64,000 bases of DNA from Pseudomonas phage PaBG. The stretch lies in sequence record KF147891.1. One strand, written 5' to 3'. Made by a program: the position numbers and the translations under genes. The notes below the pieces were generated by a model that was not told the origin of the DNA, did no database searches, and saw nothing but the letters and a program-made list of their open reading frames with translations. Of the stretch, positions 4,414 through 62,347 are shown piece by piece (positions within the stretch are counted from its first letter, which is position 1; each line of letters opens with the position of its first letter).

Positions 4414-4452
4414 ATGCCATAGAGAACTTGCGCTCTCGCACGTCCAGTTTAG

Positions 4453-4475
4453 CATAACTGCAATCAGTAGTCTAC
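4453..4475 (-). promoter_or_regulatory. conserved 23-bp box, copy 1 (GTAGACTACTGATTGCAGTTATG)
   Basis: Near-identical copies at 5160-5182 and 20624-20646; intergenic; ~80 nt upstream of ATG 4375. Confidence 0.5.
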
Positions 4476-4954: not shown

Positions 4955-5162
4955 TGCCTTCTCCTGCGTCGCTCCAGTAATACGCCATGATCGAAGTAAC
5001 AGTTCGTCCGACCTCGCGTTGCGCTTGCTGGTCGACCGTTGGCAGCTTGTTCCACCAGTTCATGGCAGCACGCATACGGTCTACGGTTGACGTGCATTTG
5101 GCGTTCCTAGCTCGATGAGCAGCCAGCCTATCGAACCATTCTTTCTCTGTCATCTGTTCCAT
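4929..5162 (-). CDS. hypothetical small protein (77 aa), possibly leaderless
   Basis: ATG is the last 3 nt of the conserved 23-bp box; no SD; overlaps next gene by 26 nt. Confidence 0.3.
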   Translation of the reverse strand: MEQMTEKEWFDRLAAHRARNAKCTSTVDRMRAAMNWWNKLPTVDQQAQREVGRTVTSIMAYYWSDAGEGNEPQLQSN

Positions 5163-5182
5163 AACTGCAATCAGTCGTCCAC
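5160..5182 (-). promoter_or_regulatory. conserved 23-bp box, copy 2 (GTGGACGACTGATTGCAGTTATG)
   Basis: Immediately downstream of terminator 5189-5228; its ATG coincides with start of ORF 4929-5162. Confidence 0.5.
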
Positions 5183-5188
5183 AGTGGA

Positions 5189-5228
5189 TAAGAAAAAGGC
5201 GGTGGGACCGCTAGATCGCACCGCCTTG
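5189..5228 (-). terminator. intrinsic terminator
   Basis: 9-bp stem AAGGCGGTG/CACCGCCTT with loop, followed on coding strand by TTTTTCTTATC. Confidence 0.7.
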
Positions 5229-5230
5229 GT

Positions 5231-5737
5231 TTAGTTGCTGACCCGATTGATCAGCCGATTGAAAAGCTGCGCCTCACGTTCGTGAGCCAGGTGCAGCCTC
5301 TCCATGGTAGCCTGCACGTCTGCAAAAGAGACGTTGCCGAGAATGACACGCGCCTCTTGGCAGTGAGTCTCGATGAACCGCAGTTTGTTTTGCACCACGT
5401 TGTGCCTGCCGCCGAGTTCTTGGTTCTCCAGCTCCTTCGCAACCATACTACGGGCGGCATCGATTTCGTTCAATAGCTGCATGGTCGCGGCAAGCGCCTT
5501 GGTGTACTGCTTGATGTCTTCCTGTCGGTACGCATAGAGCTCCGACGTGAAGGTCTGTGCCGTGGTGAGGGTGTCGTGGCACATGCTCTTTGTTTGATCA
5601 AACAGCGCCAGAGATTCGTTGCGTGCCGCGCGCAATGCGTTCTTGGCAATGCGCAGCTTGTTGTGCAGCACGGTCAGGTAGATCGCACCGCCAACAGCCA
5701 GGATGAGTGTGATGAAGTTGGCCCAGGAGAAGCTCAT
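5231..5737 (-). CDS. membrane-anchored coiled-coil protein (168 aa)
   Basis: N-terminal hydrophobic helix (ANFITLILAVGGAIYLTVL) then long helical region; followed by a strong intrinsic terminator. Confidence 0.5.
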   Translation of the reverse strand: MSFSWANFITLILAVGGAIYLTVLHNKLRIAKNALRAARNESLALFDQTKSMCHDTLTTAQTFTSELYAYRQEDIKQYTKALAATMQLLNEIDAARSMVAKELENQELGGRHNVVQNKLRFIETHCQEARVILGNVSFADVQATMERLHLAHEREAQLFNRLINRVSN

Positions 5738-6944: not shown

Positions 6945-6975
6945 AAAGCGATGGGGCGATCCCATCGCTTGTTTA
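6945..6975 (-). terminator. intrinsic terminator (bidirectional-looking)
   Basis: Stem GCGATGGG/CCCATCGC (6948-6968) flanked by A-run and T-run. Confidence 0.6.
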
Positions 6976-12749: not shown

Positions 12750-12783
12750 AAACTGGTAGTGGTTGCTCTCGCACTACCAGTTT
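12750..12783 (-). promoter_or_regulatory. perfect 12-bp stem hairpin in 5' region of gene 11847-12713
   Basis: AAACTGGTAGTG-N10-CACTACCAGTTT, no U-tract; contains AGTGGTTGC; second AGTGGTTAT at 12815-12823. Confidence 0.4.
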
Positions 12784-12832
12784 AACACAACCGCGATTCG
12801 ACGTATACCCAGTTAGTGGTTATATCCGTAGC

Positions 12833-18302: not shown

Positions 18303-18373
18303 CGTGTTATTCCTTATGGCATGTTCGGTACAATCCCACTAGCCACTCGTTGGAATGGCTAGGCTGATTTATC

Positions 18374-18748: not shown

Positions 18749-18809
18749 GATAACCTCCTTATGTGTTCGGTTCATTCACGCTGCCCACTCCTCGAATGGG
18801 CAGAAAGAA

Positions 18810-20623: not shown

Positions 20624-20646
20624 CATAACTGCGATCAGTCGTCTAC
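20624..20646 (-). promoter_or_regulatory. conserved 23-bp box, copy 3 (GTAGACGACTGATCGCAGTTATG)
   Basis: In 256-bp intergenic region downstream of terminator 20731-20764. Confidence 0.5.
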
Positions 20647-20730: not shown

Positions 20731-20764
20731 AGGAAACGAAAAAGGGAGCCCGAAGGCTCCCTTG
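20731..20764 (-). terminator. conserved-family intrinsic terminator
   Basis: Perfect hairpin GGGAGCC-CGAA-GGCTCCC preceded on plus strand by ggaaacgaaaaa. Confidence 0.75.
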
Positions 20765-21100
20765 TCATAGCACCATGCCGATGCGAACCAGATACAGCTT
20801 GCCTTGGACGTGCAAACTTTTCTGGTCAGTGATTTCGTATGGCAGCAACAGGCCGGCATACTTGCGCCACTTCTTGTCCAGATACTTCACAGCATCCGGC
20901 TTGGTGATCGCGGCATTGAACACCTCGAACCGCTTCCACTGCTTCTCAGTCAGCTCATCCCCGTTGACTGTCAGACCGCGCAGAGCTTGCAGCGCTTTGA
21001 GCACCTTCTTATCCAGCTCCTTGTGGTCTGGGATGAAGAACATCTGGATGCCCTCGGGGATGGTTTCGTAGGTCAGCAGAATCGAACGGGACTCACTCAT
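20765..21100 (-). CDS. hypothetical protein (111 aa)
   Basis: ORF followed by perfect hairpin terminator. Confidence 0.5.
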   Translation of the reverse strand: MSESRSILLTYETIPEGIQMFFIPDHKELDKKVLKALQALRGLTVNGDELTEKQWKRFEVFNAAITKPDAVKYLDKKWRKYAGLLLPYEITDQKSLHVQGKLYLVRIGMVL

Positions 21101-31535: not shown

Positions 31536-31556
31536 AGTTCACCTCTGACTGTAGTT

Positions 31557-31592
31557 TACAGAAAGCGAAAAGGCGACCCTAAGGCCGCCTCT
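31557..31592 (-). terminator. conserved-family intrinsic terminator
   Basis: GGCGACC-CTAA-GGCCGCC preceded by cagaaagcgaaaa. Confidence 0.7.
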
Positions 31593-31596
31593 TGCG

Positions 31597-31839
31597 TCAG
31601 TCAGATACTGGAACCCAGCGTTGTTCGCACTTCACGCCGTACTTCTCCGCACATGCCTTACTCTCGCTGAGCGTGTTGAGGTCCGCAATAAGTGGAATCA
31701 CGACGAATACCATCAGCAGGAACAGCAAGAATGACCAGGCTATGGCGTCGGCCATCCAGAGCTTCCACTTAGGAGCACCGCGCCAGTCTTTCTTTTTAGC
31801 ATACTCCAGGAAGTGGGCGAGCACATACAAGGCCTTCAT
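31597..31839 (-). CDS. small membrane protein (80 aa)
   Basis: TM AIAWSFLLFLLMVFVVIPLIA; followed by conserved terminator. Confidence 0.45.
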   Translation of the reverse strand: MKALYVLAHFLEYAKKKDWRGAPKWKLWMADAIAWSFLLFLLMVFVVIPLIADLNTLSESKACAEKYGVKCEQRWVPVSD

Positions 31840-32639: not shown

Positions 32640-32722
32640 ATGTAGCTCCTTCGCTTTTGCGATTGCGGATGCTTGGATACACGCACCAGACTGTGCCTAG
32701 TGCGTGTGGTGTTGCCAACCGA

Positions 32723-33550
32723 TTACTCGGCGTCGATCATTGCCTGTGCAACGATACGGGTCCAGTTCTCGATCTTCGGGTTGTCGAGAATCTGACGTGC
32801 GGTAGCCAGTGGACGTGCGAGCAGTTGTGCTTCACGCGGCACGGCAGTGATGCCGGACGGGATGTCGATGACGCTCACGATGCCCAGGTGCAGATGGCCG
32901 ACATCGTCGCTCTGGTCCCAGATCAGGCCCTTGAACTTCGGCTCCAGCTTCGGGCGCTCGGTGAGTTCCACGCCGTTGCTGTCCAGCAGCAGAACTTCCT
33001 GATCGAACTCACGACCGGCGCTGATGCTCAGGGTTGCGACGACATCCACGGTGCTGTACGCTTCTTCGGTGATGTCGCCGAAATCTGCACCGTTCTCTTT
33101 GGCGACCAACTGCAGGTCACCCACGGACATGAAGTCGGCATGATCGACGTGGCCGCCGTAGCCGACACTGTCGTTACCTGCGAGGCGCGATTCACCGACA
33201 CCCTTGCCGCGCTGGTACATGAAGTAGTAGTACGTGCCTTCGATGATGGTGCGAAGAACGCGATACGGAAGCAGTTGCAGCTTGGTACGGTCGCCCAGGT
33301 AGTTGATCGGCGGGACGCGCTTGTAGTCAAGCTCGATGCCGTGCATGTTGGCGATGTGGTCGATCAGGCCGATGATTTCTTCGCGGCCGGTCTTGCGGTT
33401 GTCGAGTACGTCGCGCAGGCCGCTGATCAGGTGGGTACGAGTCGCTGCGAGGAAATCATCCTCGAATACGGAGTTGAACCCGTTACGCAGACCGAGCTGC
33501 TTGATGAACGGGAAGGCCTCAACGGCCAGAATGTGTTGTGGGTGCTTCAT
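32723..33550 (-). CDS. hypothetical protein (~275 aa)
   Basis: ATG 33550 with GGAAG RBS (upstream in-frame start 33565 lacks RBS). Confidence 0.5.
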   Translation of the reverse strand: MKHPQHILAVEAFPFIKQLGLRNGFNSVFEDDFLAATRTHLISGLRDVLDNRKTGREEIIGLIDHIANMHGIELDYKRVPPINYLGDRTKLQLLPYRVLRTIIEGTYYYFMYQRGKGVGESRLAGNDSVGYGGHVDHADFMSVGDLQLVAKENGADFGDITEEAYSTVDVVATLSISAGREFDQEVLLLDSNGVELTERPKLEPKFKGLIWDQSDDVGHLHLGIVSVIDIPSGITAVPREAQLLARPLATARQILDNPKIENWTRIVAQAMIDAE

Positions 33551-33600
33551 TCGATTGGCTTCCATGTTGGGTTGAACAGCGATACTCGTTTACAGTTCCG

Positions 33601-33637
33601 CAGAAACGAAAATGGGAACCCGAAGGCTCCCATTTTC
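33601..33637 (-). terminator. conserved-family intrinsic terminator
   Basis: TGGGAACC-CGAA-GGCTCCCA flanked by cagaaacgaaaa and TTTTC. Confidence 0.75.
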
Positions 33638-33919
33638 TTACGCTGTGGTCGTCGGTGCGCAGAGGACTTGCACACCCTGGAGAAAGAACGAGGTGATCTT
33701 CTCGTTGGCGTCGTTCTGAATGTGCATCAGCGCAGGCACGTCAGCATCGCCGTAGAACTTACCGACACCGCCCTTGAACGGATGCTTGGCGATGAACTCG
33801 TCCATTTCGGCGCGGGTCAGAACGATGGAGCTCACCGTGGACAGTGGGCCTTCGAGGTACGCCGCGTTGATGGCATCGATGACTTGCTGCACGATGCCAG
33901 TGTGGTTGTTGATTTCCAT
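33638..33919 (-). CDS. hypothetical small protein (93 aa)
   Basis: GAGGT RBS; followed by conserved terminator. Confidence 0.5.
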   Translation of the reverse strand: MEINNHTGIVQQVIDAINAAYLEGPLSTVSSIVLTRAEMDEFIAKHPFKGGVGKFYGDADVPALMHIQNDANEKITSFFLQGVQVLCAPTTTA

Positions 33920-46164: not shown

Positions 46165-46180
46165 GCTGCACCCCGCAGAA

Positions 46181-46224
46181 AGGAAAAAGGCCCTGAGCCC
46201 GTTACCGAGCTAGGGCCCATTTCA
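46181..46224 (-). terminator. intrinsic terminator after tail tube gene
   Basis: GGCCCT(G)AGC stem with 10-nt loop, preceded by cagaaaggaaaaa. Confidence 0.6.
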
Positions 46225-46731
46225 TCAGGTGCGCTTGTAGTAGTCGTAGGCGAAGGTCGCATCGACTGTCATCGCGGTACCACCCGAACCATCGAACTGA
46301 GCGTCAGGAACTTCTGTCGGCCAGATGTTGTAGATGGTGTAGTTCAGAGCCTCAGCACCAGTCTGGTCGTAGATGGTCATGACGGCGTTCGTGGCGTAGT
46401 CGCGCTTGAAGTTGCCGGACTGCGTGTCGGTCTCCCGGCACATTTCGCTCCAGTCTTCCAGCGTGGTGTTGATGACACCGTCGTAGGATTCGTGGAAGGA
46501 AATGCTCATGGAGTTGCTGAAGGTCTTGCGGGCAGCGTGGACAGTCTTGTGACCGAACAGCTCCATTTCAGCTTGTTGCACCGACATACCGGGTTTTACG
46601 CCGGACTTACATTGCACGCGCAGCGTACGGTTGTCACCGCCGCCAGGCACTCGCGTGAATACCAGGTCGAAGTTGTCGTTGAGCATCGGGTCGCCGACGT
46701 TCAACACCTCGTCAAGAGACGGCTTGGGCAT
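46225..46731 (-). CDS. tail tube protein (168 aa)
   Basis: Size and position immediately downstream of sheath; GAGGT RBS; followed by terminator. Confidence 0.6.
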   Translation of the reverse strand: MPKPSLDEVLNVGDPMLNDNFDLVFTRVPGGGDNRTLRVQCKSGVKPGMSVQQAEMELFGHKTVHAARKTFSNSMSISFHESYDGVINTTLEDWSEMCRETDTQSGNFKRDYATNAVMTIYDQTGAEALNYTIYNIWPTEVPDAQFDGSGGTAMTVDATFAYDYYKRT

Positions 46732-48390: not shown

Positions 48391-49776
48391 TTAGCTTGCC
48401 TGCAGGATGGAACACCGTACAGTTTCGTCTTCTTTGGCGTACAACTTGACGATGCCGCTAAACTTTCCGTTGAGGGTGAACAAGCCGTTGATTTCCAGTT
48501 GCAGTGCAATTTGCTGCACGACATCCGTCTCAGGCTCGTCCGGTGTTTCTGGCTGCTCTGGTTGCACAGGACCGCTACGAAGAATGGGCGTCTCTTCCCG
48601 AATGATCGTAGGCGCTCCGCCAACATTGGAGTCGGCGTAGGTGACAGTCAGCACGGTGTCTTGGTCGAAGATCGAACCCAGCGTGTAGCGTGCCTCGTAG
48701 ATGCCTGTGTTCAACCCGACACGATTGGCACGCACGCGGACAAACTTGTTGGTCTGCTTGCCTGCGATAACCAGATCGACGTACTCTGTGAGGACGTCCG
48801 GATCATCCACACGGAACACGGCTTCCAGAGTAGGCTGCACATTCTCCGGCACCGTGAGCACACCCAGAGTGGGTTGCTGTGTGATCTGGATTTGCTTGGT
48901 AATCGTCTGGAGACTACCGTACATGTCGGCGAAAGCGTACTCAGTGATCAGGGTGTCGCCTTCTTGGGTGTCGAGCAGGTGCTGCGACAGATCAACGCTC
49001 TGTGCCCAATGGCCACCATCGGCAGGCATCAGGTACGACACCAACCGCTCGCCTGTGCGCTGTAGTGTCAGAGTGACGAATGGCGTACTGCCGTTGTTCT
49101 CAGCAAACAAGGCAATGCCGAGTCGACCATTCGGAGGGCACGCCCGACGCGCTTCCAGTACAGGCATCTGGAACGCGCTAACGACAGTGATGTTCTTCAC
49201 CACGTTCACAGGTTCACCGGAGCTGCCGCGGCCGTCTTGGTAGATGACCCGTAGGACATCATCAGGTGAGGCGTGCATGATCCCGTCGAAGTCTTCGCCT
49301 CGGATAGGCTTGAGTTCGATGTAGATGGTGCTGCGGTACATGCTGTCCGCAATCTTATCCAGCATCAGGTACTCGGTCTCGCCCGTTGTCGCATTGAACA
49401 CCGTGACCTGTAGCTTGTCCTTGACGACATCAGGATCGTACACTGCAATCTGCAGGTGGGCGTTGGTATTGACCTCACTCTCCGCATAGATCACACCAGT
49501 CGTATAGGTCGTACCGGGCTCTTCCGGATACTCCACGTCGGGTGGGCCGGGGATCAAGTGTGCGATCACCGGGAAGGCAGTGGCGATCTGCAAAAACTTG
49601 TTGGAGTTGCGTGTGATGATATGCGGCTTGGTGCGTGTGACTTCGACGTCCAGTTGGCTGATCGAGCTGGACTTGGCGCTCACCATGGCACGCTTGGCGC
49701 TTTTCTTACCCAAGCGATCCACTAGATACGTCCTGGATTCAGTGACGACTGTGGTGTCTCCGAGTAGCTTATCCAT
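48391..49776 (-). CDS. virion structural protein (461 aa), neck/tail-completion candidate
   Basis: Between head genes and sheath; beta-rich composition. Confidence 0.4.
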   Translation of the reverse strand: MDKLLGDTTVVTESRTYLVDRLGKKSAKRAMVSAKSSSISQLDVEVTRTKPHIITRNSNKFLQIATAFPVIAHLIPGPPDVEYPEEPGTTYTTGVIYAESEVNTNAHLQIAVYDPDVVKDKLQVTVFNATTGETEYLMLDKIADSMYRSTIYIELKPIRGEDFDGIMHASPDDVLRVIYQDGRGSSGEPVNVVKNITVVSAFQMPVLEARRACPPNGRLGIALFAENNGSTPFVTLTLQRTGERLVSYLMPADGGHWAQSVDLSQHLLDTQEGDTLITEYAFADMYGSLQTITKQIQITQQPTLGVLTVPENVQPTLEAVFRVDDPDVLTEYVDLVIAGKQTNKFVRVRANRVGLNTGIYEARYTLGSIFDQDTVLTVTYADSNVGGAPTIIREETPILRSGPVQPEQPETPDEPETDVVQQIALQLEINGLFTLNGKFSGIVKLYAKEDETVRCSILQAS

Positions 49777-50428
49777 TCTTCACCTCAATGCCGGTGGTGA
49801 CTTCGCCGCGATTGTTGACCTTCGGCACGTCGCGCATCGCACCAAGCTTGGTGTTGATTGTGAAGGACAGTACGAGGTCCATGCCCTCAGGGTCGGCCTC
49901 GAGGTCCTTGTCCGAACGAGGAATCGGAATGCTCTCCGAGTCCAGTTTGACTTCAACGATCCACGACACGCCTTCGTATTCAACTCGGGCGTTCATCTTA
50001 CCCGAATGGGCGACGATGAGGGCACGAGTGCAGAAGTTCATGGCATCGATGATGTCTTTGGTGACGTAGTGCACCTCGGCCTGAATAGAGCACGGGAACA
50101 GAAACGCCTTCTTGAGTACAGCGTTTGCCAACTCATCGAATGTGGCGCCCATGCTATGGCGAGCTGCTGTCTTGACTGCTTGCTGGTCCTTGACCAATCC
50201 AAGGCTACCCAGCGAGTAGTACGAATACGGGTAAAGGTCGGCGACGTTGATGTTGGCGTCGTCCACACCTTTTTTCAGGTGACGCTTGACGTCCTGCGAT
50301 TGCACCAGAGGCAATGCCTCAAGAGCGAAGAACCGCTTCACCGCTTCACGGAACGTGTATAGCGTGATGTATGCAGGACTGTTCTTTTGGAGAATGCGTT
50401 CCGTGTTATCGGTGAGCTGTAACGACAT
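49769..50428 (-). CDS. virion structural protein (~219 aa)
   Basis: ATG 50428 just downstream of terminator 50441-50474; ORF-track start 50479 would run through terminator. Confidence 0.45.
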   Translation of the reverse strand: MSLQLTDNTERILQKNSPAYITLYTFREAVKRFFALEALPLVQSQDVKRHLKKGVDDANINVADLYPYSYYSLGSLGLVKDQQAVKTAARHSMGATFDELANAVLKKAFLFPCSIQAEVHYVTKDIIDAMNFCTRALIVAHSGKMNARVEYEGVSWIVEVKLDSESIPIPRSDKDLEADPEGMDLVLSFTINTKLGAMRDVPKVNNRGEVTTGIEVKNG

Positions 50429-50440
50429 GGAAAATACCCC

Positions 50441-50474
50441 AGAAATGAAAGTGGCGACCCTAAGGCCGCCACAG
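50441..50474 (-). terminator. conserved-family intrinsic terminator
   Basis: GTGGCGACC-CTAA-GGCCGCCAC preceded by cagaaatgaaa. Confidence 0.75.
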
Positions 50475-50475
50475 T

Positions 50476-50949
50476 TCAACTCTTGTACCGAATCGGACCA
50501 CTCAGGACAGCCTGGGCGGTAGAAGCCACAGCTTCCTCTTCTTCGTCCGCTTCTTCCTCATCCTCTTCGAGGTCTTCGTCGACCCCGTTCACGTCTTCGT
50601 CGTCTTCGAGGAAATCCTCGTCGAGCGCTTCATCCGCGAAGTCATCACCGTCCAGCTCATCACCCTCGTCGAGGAACGACGCAGTTGCGAGTTGGCGAGA
50701 TACACGATTGGACAGGGAAACGAAATCAGTTGCGGAGGCTGCTGCCAGAGACGGCGCAAGTGTGTTTTCCGCTTGTGGCGTAGAGCCATCATTCCGCACC
50801 GCAGTGGGCGCAGGCTTCATCACCTCAGACACGAACTGGGTAAGGTCGTCACCGAACTCACCAGCTTTGGCCATGTACTTGAGGCAGTCTTCCTGGTTGC
50901 CCTGCTGAAGGGCGATAACGGCAAGCGCGAGAAACTGTTTGCCGCTCAT
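50476..50949 (-). CDS. acidic head-module protein (~157 aa)
   Basis: ATG 50949 with GGAG RBS; C-terminal D/E-rich tail; followed by conserved terminator. Confidence 0.5.
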   Translation of the reverse strand: MSGKQFLALAVIALQQGNQEDCLKYMAKAGEFGDDLTQFVSEVMKPAPTAVRNDGSTPQAENTLAPSLAAASATDFVSLSNRVSRQLATASFLDEGDELDGDDFADEALDEDFLEDDEDVNGVDEDLEEDEEEADEEEEAVASTAQAVLSGPIRYKS

Positions 50950-51055
50950 CGTTCGTACTCCTGCAAAGGGTGTAGACTGAAACGCAGGCGGGTCGGAGGG
51001 CGCTCTCCTAACCGCCTGCATCATGTACTACACGCAGCACGCTGTCCCAGTGGGA

Positions 51056-52162
51056 TTAGGCGCGCTTGCCCTTGACGACGGAGCGAACGTTGGCCAGGAC
51101 GAGCGAGAACGGCTCGACCATGAACCAGCCGCGGGTGCTGTTACCGGCATCGGCGCCGTTGGTCGGGGTGGACTGGATGCCGCCACGAGTGGAGTAGGCA
51201 CCGTGGTTACGCGGATCGGAGACCACGTAGATTTCGCCCGGGTTCAGGACCTTCTGGTTCGGCTGGCGGAAGGCATCGGTGATGATGTTCATGCCGACCA
51301 GGGTACCGATCTGACCGTTCAGCACCAGGTCATACTTGGTGATCGGGTCGAAGAAGGTGGCGAAGTCGTTGCTGCCGATCACGTCGGCCCAGTAGTCGTT
51401 GGCCAGCAGGATGTGAGTAGCCGGCAGGCCCCACTTGGCGATTTGCTGACGCAGACGACCCAGGTTCTTGGTGGTCAGTTCGCCGGCGATCAGCTCCAGG
51501 TTGTTGACGACGCCGACGGTCTGGTCAGCGGCCTTCTTCCACAGGCGGTCTTCGGCAACCATGATGGCTTGCAGACCGTCGTTGTAGGCGTGGTCCAGCA
51601 GGTCACCGTTGACTTGTTGGATGTCCAGGTTTTCAACGCGAACGTTGGCCTGAATCTCGAACTCGTCCGGGGTGAACACGCGCTGACGAATGGTCTGGTA
51701 GCCGGTGTTGCTGGAGCTGGTGGCGACCACGGCCATGGTGTCGTGAGCGGGCATCGGAACGCGCTGTACTTCGCCTTGCTTGAGGGTGTTACCCACCATC
51801 AGCTTGCGGACGAAGCCTTCGCGGTCAGCTTGGTCGCTGATCTGCTGAGCCAGGCTGGCACCCAGAGCGGACCACTTCTGCGGGTCAACCATGGCTTCGC
51901 GCAGCACTTCGCGGCGAGCTTCGGCAGCAGCCACAGCTTCTTCGCGGGCGCTCGGAGCGCGACGTTGTTCGATGATTTCGCCGGAAGCGTAGGCGGACAT
52001 CATCTGGCCGATGACCTGCATGGCCTCCTTGACGGAACCGGCGTTGATTTCGCCAGTCGAGGAGCTCAGGGCCAGCTCGCGGCCTTTGCCGAGACGCAGG
52101 TCTTCCAGGGGCGAGCCGTCCTTCAGGACCATGCGGGCGCCGGTGAATGCGTGTTGAGTCAT
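51056..52162 (-). CDS. major capsid protein (~368 aa)
   Basis: Size, position after scaffold-like acidic protein, high expected expression (GGAGA RBS, codon-typical), HK97-like composition; ATG 52162. Confidence 0.65.
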   Translation of the reverse strand: MTQHAFTGARMVLKDGSPLEDLRLGKGRELALSSSTGEINAGSVKEAMQVIGQMMSAYASGEIIEQRRAPSAREEAVAAAEARREVLREAMVDPQKWSALGASLAQQISDQADREGFVRKLMVGNTLKQGEVQRVPMPAHDTMAVVATSSSNTGYQTIRQRVFTPDEFEIQANVRVENLDIQQVNGDLLDHAYNDGLQAIMVAEDRLWKKAADQTVGVVNNLELIAGELTTKNLGRLRQQIAKWGLPATHILLANDYWADVIGSNDFATFFDPITKYDLVLNGQIGTLVGMNIITDAFRQPNQKVLNPGEIYVVSDPRNHGAYSTRGGIQSTPTNGADAGNSTRGWFMVEPFSLVLANVRSVVKGKRA

Positions 52163-56212: not shown

Positions 56213-57897
56213 TCTTCCTTCTTGGTGGAGTCGATGGCTTTCTGCACCTTGGCACTCGGGCGAATGCCCAGCTTGGTGTAAAACTCCGCCAGAATCTCCG
56301 GGCTGATGTAGTTTTGAATAGCCGTGTTGCTGGTGATCTTGTCGCCACTCATGTGACCAAGCTCGGCACCGATCTTGAGCAGTTCGGTCTCCAACCACTT
56401 GTGGACATCACGATCTTTCCAGTTGCCGCCTTTCTTGAACGGGCTGTCCTTGAGCAGCGCCAGTGCCATCTCAGTACCGCGCGCCGTACGCAGCTTGTGC
56501 ACCGTGAAGGCTTTCGGGAAGCCTAGGGTACGCATGTAGCGGTTGATCATGGCGCCAGTGACCTGAGCGTTCTTGAAGGTGAACACGTGGTCGTTCGAGC
56601 CTTTGCCTTCGATCAGCTTGTGCAGAGCATCGCCCAGTTGCTTGCCACGCGCCGAAGTGAACTTGAGCTTGTGGGCCTGCTTACCGCCGGACTTGCCGAT
56701 GTAGGTAACAGTGGCGCCATTGCCTTGGGTGTTGAACTTGAAGTGCTTGACCAGAAGCTGCGTGGCGCCGTACGTCTTCTCGCCACCTGTGGCTGCATTC
56801 TTGTTGCCGACGCGAGCGCTGGTGTCGTAGATGAACTCGCACAGTGTCGCCAGCACACCTTCTTTCGACTTGTTGACCTTGCGCAGATCAGGCAGCCACT
56901 TCTTGGTCAGTTGGCTGAGCTTCGGCATGACTTCGGCCACGACGTTGAATTTCTCGGCCTTGGCGCCAGTACGGTACGACTCGGTGTAACCGCGGGTCGC
57001 GTTCTGGGCGAACGGCGGCGTGAACTCGCAGACGTATGCGTTGTCCTCGTCGGCGTTGTACTTCGGATTCATCTTCACTTCACCGCTGGGGCTTTGCAGC
57101 AAACGCTTGCCGGCAGTGGTGTAGAAGCGGCCCAGGTCATCGATGTTGCCAACGAATCCAGTAGGTAGGTTGTGGACGATACCCAGCGACTTGAGCTGGG
57201 AGATAACGTCACGCAACGGCAGATATGGCTGGCCAGATGCACGCACCAGATTCGCCAGAGCCTTCTTGAAGATGTCGTTGACTTCCCGGCGGAGCTTCAG
57301 GTACTCGGTATGGCCCTGGGTTTTCTCACCCTTGGCTTTGTTGTGTGCCTGCCACTTCTCCAGAACTTCGGTGGGCATGATGTAGCCAGATACGCCACCA
57401 TGGCGCTTCACCAGAGCTTGCAGCTTCTTGTACACGTCGCCGGTATCGATGCCATCAACGTCGTGCGTGTAGAACTGCGTAACCATCGGATCGCCGATGG
57501 CCGTGACGCCGCGCAGCAGTCGCTTGGCGGCAGACTCGCTACCAAAATGCGCCAGACGGAAGTCTTTGAGTAGCCCGAGTTGGGCGCGGCTGATGTCCGT
57601 TTCCTTCTCGAATGCCTGGGTCTTGGCTTTCAGTGCTTCCAGCAGCTCGGTGATGGCAGCATCTGCGGTATCGTCTTCTGCTGGATTGGCGCCACCAACC
57701 ACAGAGCGCACGGCAGCGCTGGTGAGTTTGGTGAGTTTGAATTTGGTCAGAAACTCACCCGCATCGCGCTCCCACATGTTCATGCGGCGCAGTTGCTCTC
57801 GATTGAGCTTGATGTCGTAGGTGACGTAGAGGGTTGCCAGTAGCTTTAGGAAGGAGACAACCGAATCCTTCTGTACGGCGCTAAGACTGGTGTGCAT
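56209..57897 (-). CDS. DNA topoisomerase IB-like / tyrosine-recombinase-fold protein (562 aa)
   Basis: C-terminal LGHMSGDKITSNTAIQNYISPEIL (LGH...NYIxP resembles topo IB active-site SKxxY-xDP and recombinase box II), YIGKSGGKQAHKLKF, HKLRTARGT. Confidence 0.45.
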   Translation of the reverse strand: MHTSLSAVQKDSVVSFLKLLATLYVTYDIKLNREQLRRMNMWERDAGEFLTKFKLTKLTSAAVRSVVGGANPAEDDTADAAITELLEALKAKTQAFEKETDISRAQLGLLKDFRLAHFGSESAAKRLLRGVTAIGDPMVTQFYTHDVDGIDTGDVYKKLQALVKRHGGVSGYIMPTEVLEKWQAHNKAKGEKTQGHTEYLKLRREVNDIFKKALANLVRASGQPYLPLRDVISQLKSLGIVHNLPTGFVGNIDDLGRFYTTAGKRLLQSPSGEVKMNPKYNADEDNAYVCEFTPPFAQNATRGYTESYRTGAKAEKFNVVAEVMPKLSQLTKKWLPDLRKVNKSKEGVLATLCEFIYDTSARVGNKNAATGGEKTYGATQLLVKHFKFNTQGNGATVTYIGKSGGKQAHKLKFTSARGKQLGDALHKLIEGKGSNDHVFTFKNAQVTGAMINRYMRTLGFPKAFTVHKLRTARGTEMALALLKDSPFKKGGNWKDRDVHKWLETELLKIGAELGHMSGDKITSNTAIQNYISPEILAEFYTKLGIRPSAKVQKAIDSTKKEE

Positions 57898-58843
57898 GGC
57901 CTATCTCATCGTATTGGGCGAAGTAGTCGCGCAGGCGCACTGGACCTTTGTCGGTCACAACGCACCCGTCCTCGACCTTAACTGCCGATTGAATGGAACG
58001 GAAGCGGCACACATGGAATGCCATAAACTGGTCAAATTCATGCGTGCCAAATTCAGGAGCTTTCACCATGGCTCGCCACTTGACGAGAATCGGGTGCTCC
58101 AAATCGCAGGCCTCAGGCAGTTCGCCGTATGCGTAGGCATGTTCCAGCCACGACAGTACGTCCGTCTTCTTGCCGTCAGCAGAGTAGATTGGGCGTTGGA
58201 ATTTGAACAAGGCTGTGGTCGAGTAGTATCCGGTGTCCACGGAAGTTCGGCAGAACAGAGCCAGATCGTGGTAGTTGACCTGAGATACTATCTCGTCCAT
58301 GCTGTAGGCGCGCATGGACATAACGCGCCACATGGCGTCGTCAGGAACGATGAAGGCATACTGCTCTTTGCGGATGCTCTTTTCCTGAATACGCTTTAGA
58401 TCAGCCTCGTTGAGCTGTATCTCGAATTGCTGGTGTGCCAACGACAAAAGGTCACCCGACCTGCGGATAACCAGTTCTTCGTTGGGCATAATGCCGATGT
58501 TGTTCGTGAGGATAGGTGCGTTGGTCCGATACACCTCTTCGCTGCACTCACTTCGGTTTTGCTGCACTGTCTTGATCGGGATGATGTTGTTCAGGGTTAC
58601 GGCAATCACGTCATCGAGTCCGGCAAAAGGCACACCGGACTTCATGATGGCAGTAACGCGCATCTGCAAGACAATGAGGGATTTCACCACGTGCCTGTGG
58701 GAGAGAACGCTTCCAACCAACTCATACTGGGAAGTTTCCTTGGGCTTGATGCCCAGACTTTCCAGTAACTGCTGAGTCTCAGGCGTCAGAATGACGTCCT
58801 TGTTAAGGACGATTGAGACGGTGAAATTGTCGGCCTGAGACAT
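57881..58843 (-). CDS. hypothetical protein (~320 aa)
   Basis: ATG 58843 with GAGGTG RBS (ORF-track M at 58852 is GTG). Confidence 0.5.
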   Translation of the reverse strand: MSQADNFTVSIVLNKDVILTPETQQLLESLGIKPKETSQYELVGSVLSHRHVVKSLIVLQMRVTAIMKSGVPFAGLDDVIAVTLNNIIPIKTVQQNRSECSEEVYRTNAPILTNNIGIMPNEELVIRRSGDLLSLAHQQFEIQLNEADLKRIQEKSIRKEQYAFIVPDDAMWRVMSMRAYSMDEIVSQVNYHDLALFCRTSVDTGYYSTTALFKFQRPIYSADGKKTDVLSWLEHAYAYGELPEACDLEHPILVKWRAMVKAPEFGTHEFDQFMAFHVCRFRSIQSAVKVEDGCVVTDKGPVRLRDYFAQYDEIGHAHQS

Positions 58844-58853
58844 GATGTGCACC

Positions 58854-60444: not shown

Positions 60445-61791
60445 TTAAATCCCCAACTGCGGGTACCGAAGCAGCGCATCCAGCTTGCGCCGTGTGATGA
60501 TTTCGCGCATCTTGGCGCGATAGTCGTACTGGGAGCAGCGCCCATCGAACCGTGCGAACACGGCTGTCAGCTTGCGTTTGACCTCTTGGTCGGCAAGCCC
60601 GCGAGCAATCGCCTTCTCGATGTCGATGAGTTCTTCTTCCGCATACGGGAAGATTTTGACAGCTGGGAAGTGCTCCCAGATGGCACGAATCTGATCGTCG
60701 GTACCAGAAGCCTTTTCCTTACGCATCCACGATGCAAACATCGGGAACGGCTGTGCGTAGTACGGCTCTTCCTTCTTCGACACCTTTAGCTTGCCAATGG
60801 CTTGCGAAGCGCCCTGCTCTTTGACATCGAACGTCTTTATCAGGCGACCTTTGGGGTCGACCACTTTCCACCAGAGCGGGAGCTTGCTCGGCGGAATCTT
60901 GCCGTTCTTGCTGATCTGTGGATAGTCGCGCATGGACGTCTGCGATGTGGTGACCAGGTCGATGACGTAGGACTTGGTAGGATCATTCTCACGTACCTGT
61001 CTGACCAGATCGTCGAACCTGTCTTCCAGGTCGAGGACGCTCCAGTAGTATTTGGCGTGGTTCGGATACTCAGGCGAGAACACGCGCAGGACGTGAGTCT
61101 CAACGTCGGAGGCCGCTTCTCGCTTCTCCCAGTCGAGGAGAATGCTGATGTTGAATCCGGCGCGATTGATCCGCTGCATTTCGGCTTGGAAGTATCGCCC
61201 GTGGCCGTCGTGCAGGATCGAGTTGTTGCCCTCGTCTATGCCTTTACGGAACAGATACAGGTGGATCATTTCGTGAAGCAGCGTGTCCACAAACAGGATC
61301 ATGTCCGCACTGATGCGCTTCATGTTCACGGTCATACGGTACAACGGCTTGCCACCCACAGAGTTGAACTGCGCCAATCCGAAGGGCGAGCTGGCGCCCT
61401 GGGACTTCTTGAACAGAAGGGACTTCGGGCACATGCCGTTGAAGTATTTCTCGTTGAAGTAGGCGTAGAGTTTCGGGATCAACTCGTAGGTCAGGTTGGG
61501 GATAAACGGGTAGGAAGGGTATTTCGGATGCGGAACGAATTGGAAATCGTCTGGCGTGCTGGACTTCATCAAGCGCAGATACGCTTTGTCCGTGGTGGTT
61601 GCACGAAATTTCAGCTTCGGCTCATCCAAGTGAATGATCGTGACCTTGGTGCCTTCGACCTTCACCTTGAATTGATCATTCGTCCCGACATCGATTTCGT
61701 ACTCATCGTTGTGCTTGTCGAGGACGATCGTGGCACGCCCATTATAGGTGTACGTCACGAATCCATTGTCGGATGCGATTGCAAGTTCCAT
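60445..61791 (-). CDS. SprT-like zinc-metallopeptidase-domain protein (~449 aa)
   Basis: HEMIH (HExxH) preceded by SprT-like region (YPFIPNLTYELIPKLYAYFNEKYFNGMCP...GKPLYRMTVNMKRISADMILFVDTLLHEMIHLYLF); GGAGG RBS before ATG 61791. Confidence 0.55.
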   Translation of the reverse strand: MELAIASDNGFVTYTYNGRATIVLDKHNDEYEIDVGTNDQFKVKVEGTKVTIIHLDEPKLKFRATTTDKAYLRLMKSSTPDDFQFVPHPKYPSYPFIPNLTYELIPKLYAYFNEKYFNGMCPKSLLFKKSQGASSPFGLAQFNSVGGKPLYRMTVNMKRISADMILFVDTLLHEMIHLYLFRKGIDEGNNSILHDGHGRYFQAEMQRINRAGFNISILLDWEKREAASDVETHVLRVFSPEYPNHAKYYWSVLDLEDRFDDLVRQVRENDPTKSYVIDLVTTSQTSMRDYPQISKNGKIPPSKLPLWWKVVDPKGRLIKTFDVKEQGASQAIGKLKVSKKEEPYYAQPFPMFASWMRKEKASGTDDQIRAIWEHFPAVKIFPYAEEELIDIEKAIARGLADQEVKRKLTAVFARFDGRCSQYDYRAKMREIITRRKLDALLRYPQLGI

Positions 61792-61834
61792 GACTGGCCT
61801 CCAGTAACTTACCGTTAAATTACTTTGGATGGTG

Positions 61835-61873
61835 CGGAAACGAAAAAAGGCGACCCGGAGGCCGCCTTTCATT
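61835..61873 (-). terminator. conserved-family intrinsic terminator
   Basis: GGCGACC-CGGA-GGCCGCC preceded by cggaaacgaaaaaa. Confidence 0.75.
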
Positions 61874-61876
61874 GCG

Positions 61877-62347
61877 TCATGTTTCGCTCTTGTGTTTAGA
61901 CTCCAAAGCCCAATGTCGGTGTTCGCGCCATCCGATGGTTTCAGCAACTCGGAGTAACGCAACCACGTCCATGCCATTCGCCGGATCGCACTTCACCCAC
62001 TTCGACGAATCGATAGGTGGAGCGCAATGCTCGTCGTCCAGCACCAGATAGTCTTCAGGATTGTCGTGCCTATCCAACCACGCAGCAATCTCGTTATGCC
62101 TGCCGTCAATGTGGTCGCCAGTTGACCAGTCATCATGAAGCGTGCAGAGTATCCCGCGATCCTGCAGGTGCTTCTGCATACGTTCACGCGACTTGCCTTT
62201 GCGGACTGTCGAACTCACCACCACTCGCACGCGTGGTAATGCGAACAATTGATTCAAGACCGCAACAGCGACCGGGTCCGAGACCATACCCGCTAAATCT
62301 GAGCGCGGGTGGACGAACACTCCATCCTGATCGAGGAAGACTATCAT
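61877..62347 (-). CDS. HAD-superfamily phosphatase-like protein (156 aa)
   Basis: N-terminal MIVFLDQDGV (DxDG motif I of HAD hydrolases). Confidence 0.5.
   Translation of the reverse strand: MIVFLDQDGVFVHPRSDLAGMVSDPVAVAVLNQLFALPRVRVVVSSTVRKGKSRERMQKHLQDRGILCTLHDDWSTGDHIDGRHNEIAAWLDRHDNPEDYLVLDDEHCAPPIDSSKWVKCDPANGMDVVALLRVAETIGWREHRHWALESKHKSET

Follow-up and report, generated by a model that had tools for sequence, protein, structure and literature searches.

Genes and hairpin elements of the window

The window analysed here, a 64-kb stretch of DNA, is part of the genome of a jumbo myophage of the Lu11/PaBG/NCTB group. Megablast with 12 kb of the window gave no match in the phage collection. 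In a protein search, the tail sheath of the window is 44-46% identical to the sheaths of Phage NCTB and of Pseudomonas phages HRDY3 and Lu11, whose genomes measure 258-314 kb; the PaBG description gives these jumbo myophages the name 'Lupandier' group (PMC7412058). Protein families represented in the window include a tail sheath, a major head protein, an ATPase and a tail-associated lysin. The minus strand carries 80 of the 81 genes called with codon-usage scoring, packed nearly end to end, and independent gene calls on near-identical metagenomic contigs agree with this minus-strand layout. No Rfam family matched the window at gathering thresholds, and no tRNA genes were found in it.

Seven short elements (A to G) are built alike on the minus strand, each with a GC stem capped by a stable tetraloop (UUCG, UUAG, UCCG or GUAA) and, past the stem, a T-tract such as TTTTTCGTTTC. 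They are listed below with their predicted folding energies and the genes that they follow.

A, 20731..20763, minus strand: putative terminator, hairpin GGGAGCC-UUCG-GGCUCCC (20744-20761) and tail TTTTTCGTTTCCT (20731-20743; tabulated as TTTTTCGTTTCC); begins 3 nt past the stop of gene 20765-21100, itself the next after a DHFR gene; -18.2 kcal/mol, z = -4.0.
B, 33601..33636, minus strand: putative terminator, GAAAA-UGGGAGCC-UUCG-GGUUCCCA-UUUUC, a stem of 13 bp including one G.U pair, tail TTTTCGTTTCTG (33601-33612); begins 5 nt past the stop of gene 33638-33919, with the next start codon at 33565; -21.4 kcal/mol on the minus versus -16.2 on the plus strand.
C, 31559..31593, minus strand: putative terminator, hairpin GGCGGCC-UUAG-GGUCGCC (31572-31589), tail TTTTCGCTTTCTG; begins 7 nt past the stop of gene 31597-31839; -20.9 (minus) versus -13.2 kcal/mol (plus).
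D, 50440..50472, minus strand: putative terminator, hairpin GUGGCGGCC-UUAG-GGUCGCCAC (50451-50472), tail TTTCATTTCTG; begins 3 nt past the TGA of the 157-aa gene that comes after the major head gene, with the next ATG (50428) 22 nt beyond the hairpin; -18.4 (minus) versus -13.1 kcal/mol (plus).
E, 61835..61870, minus strand: putative terminator, GAAA-GGCGGCC-UCCG-GGUCGCC-UUUU with its core at 61849-61866, tail TTTTTTCGTTTCCG; begins 10 nt past the stop of the HAD-domain gene 61877-62347; -19.4 (minus) versus -12.7 kcal/mol (plus, z -0.66).
F, 46176..46218, minus strand: putative terminator, a longer, imperfect stem with a GNRA loop, GGGCCCUAGCUCG-GUAA-CGGGCUCAGGGCC (46189-46218), tail TTTTTCCTTTCTG; begins 6 nt past the stop of the tail tube gene 46225-46731 (a match to the T4 gp19 family), with the next ATG 24 nt past the hairpin; -26.8 (minus) versus -19.6 kcal/mol (plus).
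G, 5186..5225, minus strand: putative terminator, hairpin GGCGGUG-CGAUCUAGCGGUCC-CACCGCC (5198-5225), tail TTTTTCTTATCC; begins 5 nt past the stop of gene 5231-5737; -20.4 kcal/mol, z = -5.25.

The six sequences quoted in the initial annotation are all present where it placed them; G (5186-5225, minus strand) was absent from its list and came to light on reading the intergenic regions. A strict scan of the window for a perfect stem plus T-tract gave five candidates, all of them on the minus strand, while the plus strand yielded none; the scan missed D, F and G; an earlier perfect-stem scan missed B and C, and the set was completed by reading the intergenic regions.

Two gene starts are corrected by this reading. 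The longest reading frames at 60445-61977 and 49769-50479 run across E and D, respectively. The real start of the gene after E is the ATG at 61791, which has a GGAGG ribosome-binding site; the family match of this gene begins at residue 63 of the longest frame, consistent with a start at that ATG. The real start of the gene after D is the ATG at 50428.

The minus strand also carries short repeats with the appearance of promoters. GAC(G/T)ACTGAT(Y)GCAGTTATG occurs in three exact copies, at 4453-4472, 5160-5179 and 20624-20643, against 0.03 expected, and reads as a sigma-70-type promoter (-35-like TAGAC/TGGAC, 17 nt, then an extended -10 such as TGnGATAAT or TGcTAAACT). The copy at 5160-5179 lies within a few bases of the tail of G, and that at 20624-20643 some 85 nt downstream of A. 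Another minus-strand repeat, TAAACTGG-NN-GTGCGAGAGC, is found twice (4432-4451 and 12765-12784, against 0.03 expected), at and just past the -10-like box, and may be a shared transcript leader.

Strand, structure and placement of the elements

The minus-strand RNAs of all seven elements fold at -18 to -27 kcal/mol, with z scores of -3.2 to -5.3 against shuffled sequence, and for B to F the minus-strand RNA is more stable than its plus-strand counterpart by 5-8 kcal/mol. The stems of B, C, D and E each hold a G.U pair that becomes an A.C mismatch if the element is read on the plus strand. The loops point the same way. On the minus strand UUCG, UCCG and UUAG belong to the YNMG class and GUAA to the GNRA class, while the plus-strand readings (CGAA, CTAA, CGGA and TTAC) fall into no stable tetraloop class. 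C(UUCG)G, first seen in phage T4 mRNA, is the classic tetraloop of extra stability (PMC4371310).

A T-tract lies 3' of the hairpin on the minus strand only, with six to nine T among the first 11 nt past the stem in every element; among the matches listed for the same hairpins in unrelated viral contigs, the tails average 7.7 T over the same distance. The first TTTTC of the tail has a pairing partner as well, GAAA(A) 5' of the stem, in B, E and F. The U-tract of D (UUUCAUUUC) is the weakest of the set, short and interrupted, and D may for this reason be a weak terminator. An elemental-pause reading of the tail (G at -10, Y-1/G+1) was rejected by inspection, G at -10 being absent.

Placement relative to genes is equally uniform: every hairpin begins 3-10 nt past a stop codon of the minus strand and lies ahead of the next start codon. 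Since the 64 kb contain about 81 stop codons, some 1% of positions would qualify, and the placement of all seven elements there would be far beyond chance.

The initial annotation is borne out in part. Its identification of intrinsic terminators is supported, the elements having a GC hairpin and a U-tract, lying just past stop codons and facing in gene orientation. Its placement of the hairpins on the coding strand is not, since the minus strand has 80 of the 81 called genes and the plus-strand sequences that it quoted are therefore non-coding. The 'conserved upstream A-box' that it described is the complement of the T/U-tract 3' of each hairpin on the minus strand; the tract follows the stem and the G.U pairs fit on that strand, so that the A-box is best read as the U-tract of minus-strand terminators. 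The claim that a motif, cagaaaNgaaaa, precedes each hairpin survives in part. The motif is exact at 33601 and 46176 and has one mismatch at 50440 and 61835, but sites A and C deviate: A reads gaggaaacgaaaa in its place, and the motif at C carries a 1-nt insertion. By itself the motif is weakly significant (four matches against 0.91 expected, equalled in one of 100 shuffles), and its significance comes from its constant placement beside the hairpin. In sum, the earlier reading was right about terminators, misread the strand and over-read the conservation.

Taken together, the evidence makes it very likely, at a probability of roughly 0.9, that the seven elements are canonical intrinsic (Rho-independent) terminators of minus-strand transcripts in a jumbo myophage. 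That transcription ends at these sites, with what efficiency and by which polymerase, is something that we infer from the sequence. In the mechanism proposed, RNA polymerase would pass the stop codon and the nascent RNA would fold into a very stable GC hairpin with a tetraloop of the C(UUCG)G or GNRA type; the weakness of the rU:dA hybrid along a U-tract of the form UUUU(U)CGUUUC would then lead to release of the transcript about 7-9 nt past the stem. The polymerase would most likely be the host core enzyme, acting with host or phage sigma factors, because sigma-70-like factor genes are reported for this phage group in the PaBG description (PMC7412058). The available portion of that description names no RNA polymerase core gene.

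D and F lie inside apparent operons. The next ATG is so close to them (22-24 nt) that the genes downstream would need either read-through or internal promoters that have escaped recognition. D and F would probably act as leaky attenuators, giving more transcript of the upstream genes (tail sheath, tube and capsid region) than of the downstream ones, and would also give the upstream mRNAs a protected 3' end. A and G, for their part, would close a transcription unit ahead of the sigma-70-like promoter repeat. For annotation, the elements fix the direction of transcription (minus strand), mark seven likely ends of transcription units and point to attenuation past the tail tube gene and in the capsid region. 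They reveal no new mechanism, and the kind of feature is already known.

Relatives and the same design in other phages and bacteria

Related viral contigs found by way of the hairpins show 50-86% protein identity to the window across the structural genes, and the comparison across diverged relatives covers sites C, D, E and F. The relatives carry GGCGGCC-UUCG-GGUCGCC at the junctions orthologous to C, D and E. At the orthologous C site, contigs L021 and L103 have the same stem, a UUCG loop and the tail tttttcgtttctgtaaag; the D stem is present at the orthologous site in L066, L098 and L054, and the E stem in L106. The relative L066/L098 has the same F hairpin as the window but with the loop GCAA, which is also of the GNRA type. 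Farther away, at the D junction in Lu11, HRDY3 and NCTB and at the F junction (past the tail tube gene) in Lu11 and HRDY3, a terminator is present with an unrelated stem; NCTB has no terminator past its tube gene. The tails of the terminators in these distant relatives are similar to those of the window, for example TTTTTTCGTTTCAGGAG in NCTB.

At closer range, the D and F hairpins are unchanged in five strains at 88-97% nucleotide identity, the tail of D varying only between C and T, and A is unchanged in four near-identical strains. For the genes upstream of A and B, exact-protein look-ups gave only strains with identical terminators, and no relatives of the 280-aa and 111-aa proteins neighbouring A and B were found among the viral contigs searched. 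Over the roughly 20 kb compared, the five strains are collinear around D and F, and the sole indel seen is a homing-endonuclease gene beside the major head gene, not bordered by terminator hairpins.

The suggestion that the module is mobile or duplicated divides. Terminators held at orthologous junctions imply that function and position are old and conserved and that the copies have not recently been mobile, and the copies do not behave as a REP- or MITE-like mobile element would: C to F sit at orthologous junctions, and there is no presence/absence polymorphism among the strains. Duplication is another matter, since the identical stems could reflect old copying.

The homing-endonuclease gene is of the GIY-YIG type (Pfam LEM-3_GIY-YIG) and lies between the major head gene and the next gene in some near-identical strains (L239 4551-5606, L240 4829-5665 and L242 4067-4903). 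It is absent from the window (about 51025-51055) and from strains L238 and L241.

The design is also widespread beyond the relatives. Each of the exact hairpins with its T-run, GGCGGCCTNNGGGTCGCCNTTT and GGGAGCCTTCGGGYTCCCNTTTT, was found in no fewer than 118 viral contigs. Grouped by upstream context, the viral matches listed form 104 clusters of 31-67% GC; a reading frame ends just upstream of the hairpin in 81 of 109 and 96 of 108 cases, and the T-tract of the tails has the same two parts, TTTT(T)(T/C)N TTT. In bacteria, the pattern CCTTCGGGNNNCCNTTTTCGTTTC (CC-UUCG-GG-NNN-CC-N-TTTTCGTTTC), which has 20 fixed bases and about one match expected in the 596 Gb scanned, was found at no fewer than 120 loci (a lower bound, hence at least 120) in alpha-, beta- and gamma-proteobacterial genomes. 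The bacterial matches listed have stems of 7-15 bp, and 95 of 115 lie just past a reading frame.

A phage-specific tail, T{3,6}C.C?TTTC, at first looked nearly unique to the window (7/123 and 0/120 of the other viral tails listed) and was rejected, TTTTCGTTTC being widespread 3' of UUCG hairpins in bacteria. A sequence element setting these copies apart from host-type terminators was accordingly not found, the hairpin with its TTTTCGTTTC tail being common to both.

A counterpart is annotated in T7 itself, where GGCTCACC-TTCG-GGTGGGCC-TTTCTGCGTTTATA is given as "E. coli transcription terminator TE" (V01146 7555-7595). As RNA, T7 TE is GGCUCACC-UUCG-GGUGGGCC with a UUUCUGCG tail and has the same architecture as the window elements. 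The stem, of 7-9 bp, is GC-rich and includes one G.U pair, the tetraloop is C(UUCG)G, and the U-tract is interrupted (UUUCUGCG in TE, UUUCUGCGG at sites B and F). Both lie just past a stop codon and are read by a bacterial polymerase, as is presumed for the window. We see no difference in kind, although the stems of F and G are longer and imperfect, and three of the window loops are UUAG, UCCG and GUAA in contrast to the UUCG of TE.

Two further claims of the initial annotation yield to these comparisons. It had taken the whole cassette to be conserved beyond a generic hairpin, yet the same hairpins with the TTTTCGTTTC tail are common in unrelated phages and on proteobacterial chromosomes. It had also proposed recognition by a phage factor, which is not supported, given that the hairpin and TTTTCGTTTC tail are widespread in phages and bacteria and that T7 TE, built to the same plan, is a terminator for E. 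coli polymerase.

A parallel in position for D and F is offered by T-phi of T7, a leaky terminator after capsid gene 10 that acts on T7's own single-subunit polymerase. Similarly, F lies past the tail tube gene and D one gene past the major head gene, and in both cases essential genes lie directly downstream, implying partial read-through; unlike T-phi, the window elements are presumed to act on the host multisubunit polymerase. Recurrent terminator motifs across a giant phage genome have a precedent in 201phi2-1, in which 132 3' ends were mapped and most share at least one of a small set of motifs (PMC11512511). That set was mapped experimentally and includes factor-dependent sites, and its likeness to the window is one of description.

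Alternative readings and other hairpins

Termination is compatible with a further possibility, which we regard as unlikely: that the copies also form a duplicated cassette homogenised by recombination or gene conversion, serving, together with the repeated sigma-70-like promoters, as substrates for module shuffling of the kind proposed for PeSLs, the composite promoter/terminator cassettes of T4-type phages (PMC2839356, PMC4122927). Within the window the likeness between copies is considerable. The 14-nt stem is the same to the letter in C, D and E, its G.U pair included, A and B are identical at 17 of 18 nt, and the loop UUAG is found in both C and D, against UUCG in every copy of the relative. 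Tails drawn in random sets from unrelated contigs that have the same hairpins are less alike than the seven of the window (the observed value is reached by 10 of 5000 sets), and TTTC at offset 5-9 is found in six of seven window tails against 18 of 236 tails among the unrelated-contig matches listed. Simple convergence towards U-richness would not account in full for this likeness of the tails, which in D and F is partly the ribosome-binding site that directly follows and may partly reflect the composition of terminators typical of the host. Resemblance to PeSLs lies in the repetition of stem-loop terminators within one myophage genome and in the promoter-like repeat that follows G and, loosely, A, matching the PeSL terminator/promoter layout (PMC4122927).

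Other observations tell against this possibility. In PeSLs the terminator is directly joined to an early sigma-70-type promoter, while here only G is close to one, A is about 85 nt away and B to F, five of the seven elements, have no adjoining promoter repeat. C, D, E and F occupy orthologous junctions inside conserved structural modules, D and F show no presence/absence polymorphism in five strains, no terminator is involved in an indel within the roughly 20 kb compared between strains, and the one indel seen, the homing-endonuclease gene, does not have these hairpins at its borders. The same stems also occur in about 100 unrelated contexts among the matches listed, so that convergence in a small sequence space is plausible. 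That the C/D/E hairpins and the A/B pair in particular are kept alike by copying or gene conversion, as PeSL-like shuffling cassettes with the sigma-70-like repeat, seems to us slightly more doubtful still. Were it so, identical intragenomic copies reflecting concerted evolution or PeSL-like shuffling would be a point of modest interest in a little-studied jumbo-phage lineage.

The hairpins might otherwise be mainly stabilisers or processing sites of mRNA 3' ends, protecting against exonucleases or marking RNase cleavage, with little real termination. D and F lie so near the next start codon (22-24 nt) that a promoter would not fit between and much read-through would be required, the stems are very stable and carry tetraloops, and the intergenic hairpins at 32679-32707 and about 50968-51056, which have no U-tract, suggest that the phage also uses hairpins other than terminators. 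A pure stabiliser, though, has no need of the T-rich tract found directly past the stem in all seven elements, and the hairpin-plus-tail format is that of the annotated terminator TE in T7 and sits past the ends of reading frames in many bacteria. We consider this reading improbable, and far more so the one in which the elements act in the plus-strand direction and the conserved upstream A-box is bound by a phage-encoded factor. The A-rich motif beside the hairpins is real on the plus strand, and a few T residues also follow the B and E hairpins there. The strand evidence nonetheless already contradicts a plus-strand action: there are essentially no plus-strand genes to terminate, four stems gain an A.C mismatch and 5-8 kcal/mol is lost (E reaching a z of only -0.66), most copies have no T-tract past the hairpin on that strand, and the motif exactly complements the kind of standard U-tract known from unrelated phages, bacteria and T7 TE. 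Nor is a phage RNA polymerase core named in the available portion of the PaBG description (PMC7412058). Intrinsic termination on the minus strand thus remains the preferred reading.

Several other hairpins were seen on the minus strand of the window. At 32679-32707, in the gap past gene 32723-33565, lies a perfect 13-bp hairpin, ACACGCACUAGGC-ACA-GUCUGGUGCGUGU (-19.9 kcal/mol); since no U-tract follows, it is not a standard terminator. A long nested hairpin at about 50968-51056, directly past the stop of the major head gene, folds at about -52 kcal/mol on 126 nt and likewise has no U-tract. Its tip, GGAG(A)GCGCCC(U)CC, is found at the same position in Lu11 and HRDY3, in a close relative and in strain variants whose outer stem differs, although the consensus-fold alignment is poor; its counterparts are the following.

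L243, 3186-3270: counterpart of the nested hairpin.
L371, 3192-3278: counterpart of the nested hairpin.
L098, 2570-2680: counterpart of the nested hairpin.

Past a 538-aa gene, the hairpin AAGCGAUGGGAUCGCCCCAUCGCUU (6946-6970) is followed by only a short T-run, TTTTACC, and preceded by TGTAGTGTAAAC. TGTAAAC is also found past B (33588-33594) and C (31554-31560); as a promoter motif past these two elements, TGTAAAY was set aside, as it is not enriched in the window (eight matches against 6.7 expected). Inside gene 57881-58852, a terminator-like sequence at 58450-58472, GGUUAUCCGCAGGUCGGGUGACC plus UUUUGUCGUU (-11.2 kcal/mol), is probably fortuitous, or else a weak attenuator within the gene.

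Finally, two consecutive small genes are preceded by twin intergenic hairpins, at 18339-18362 and 18781-18803. Each has GGATAA(T/A)TC before the stem and ACCGAA after it, with no U-tract, and the core pattern occurs twice against 0.04 expected. The two stems differ by two compensatory pair changes (CUGCCCA...UGGGCAG and CUAGCCA...UGGCUAG), and the hairpins may be regulatory RNA or operator sites.
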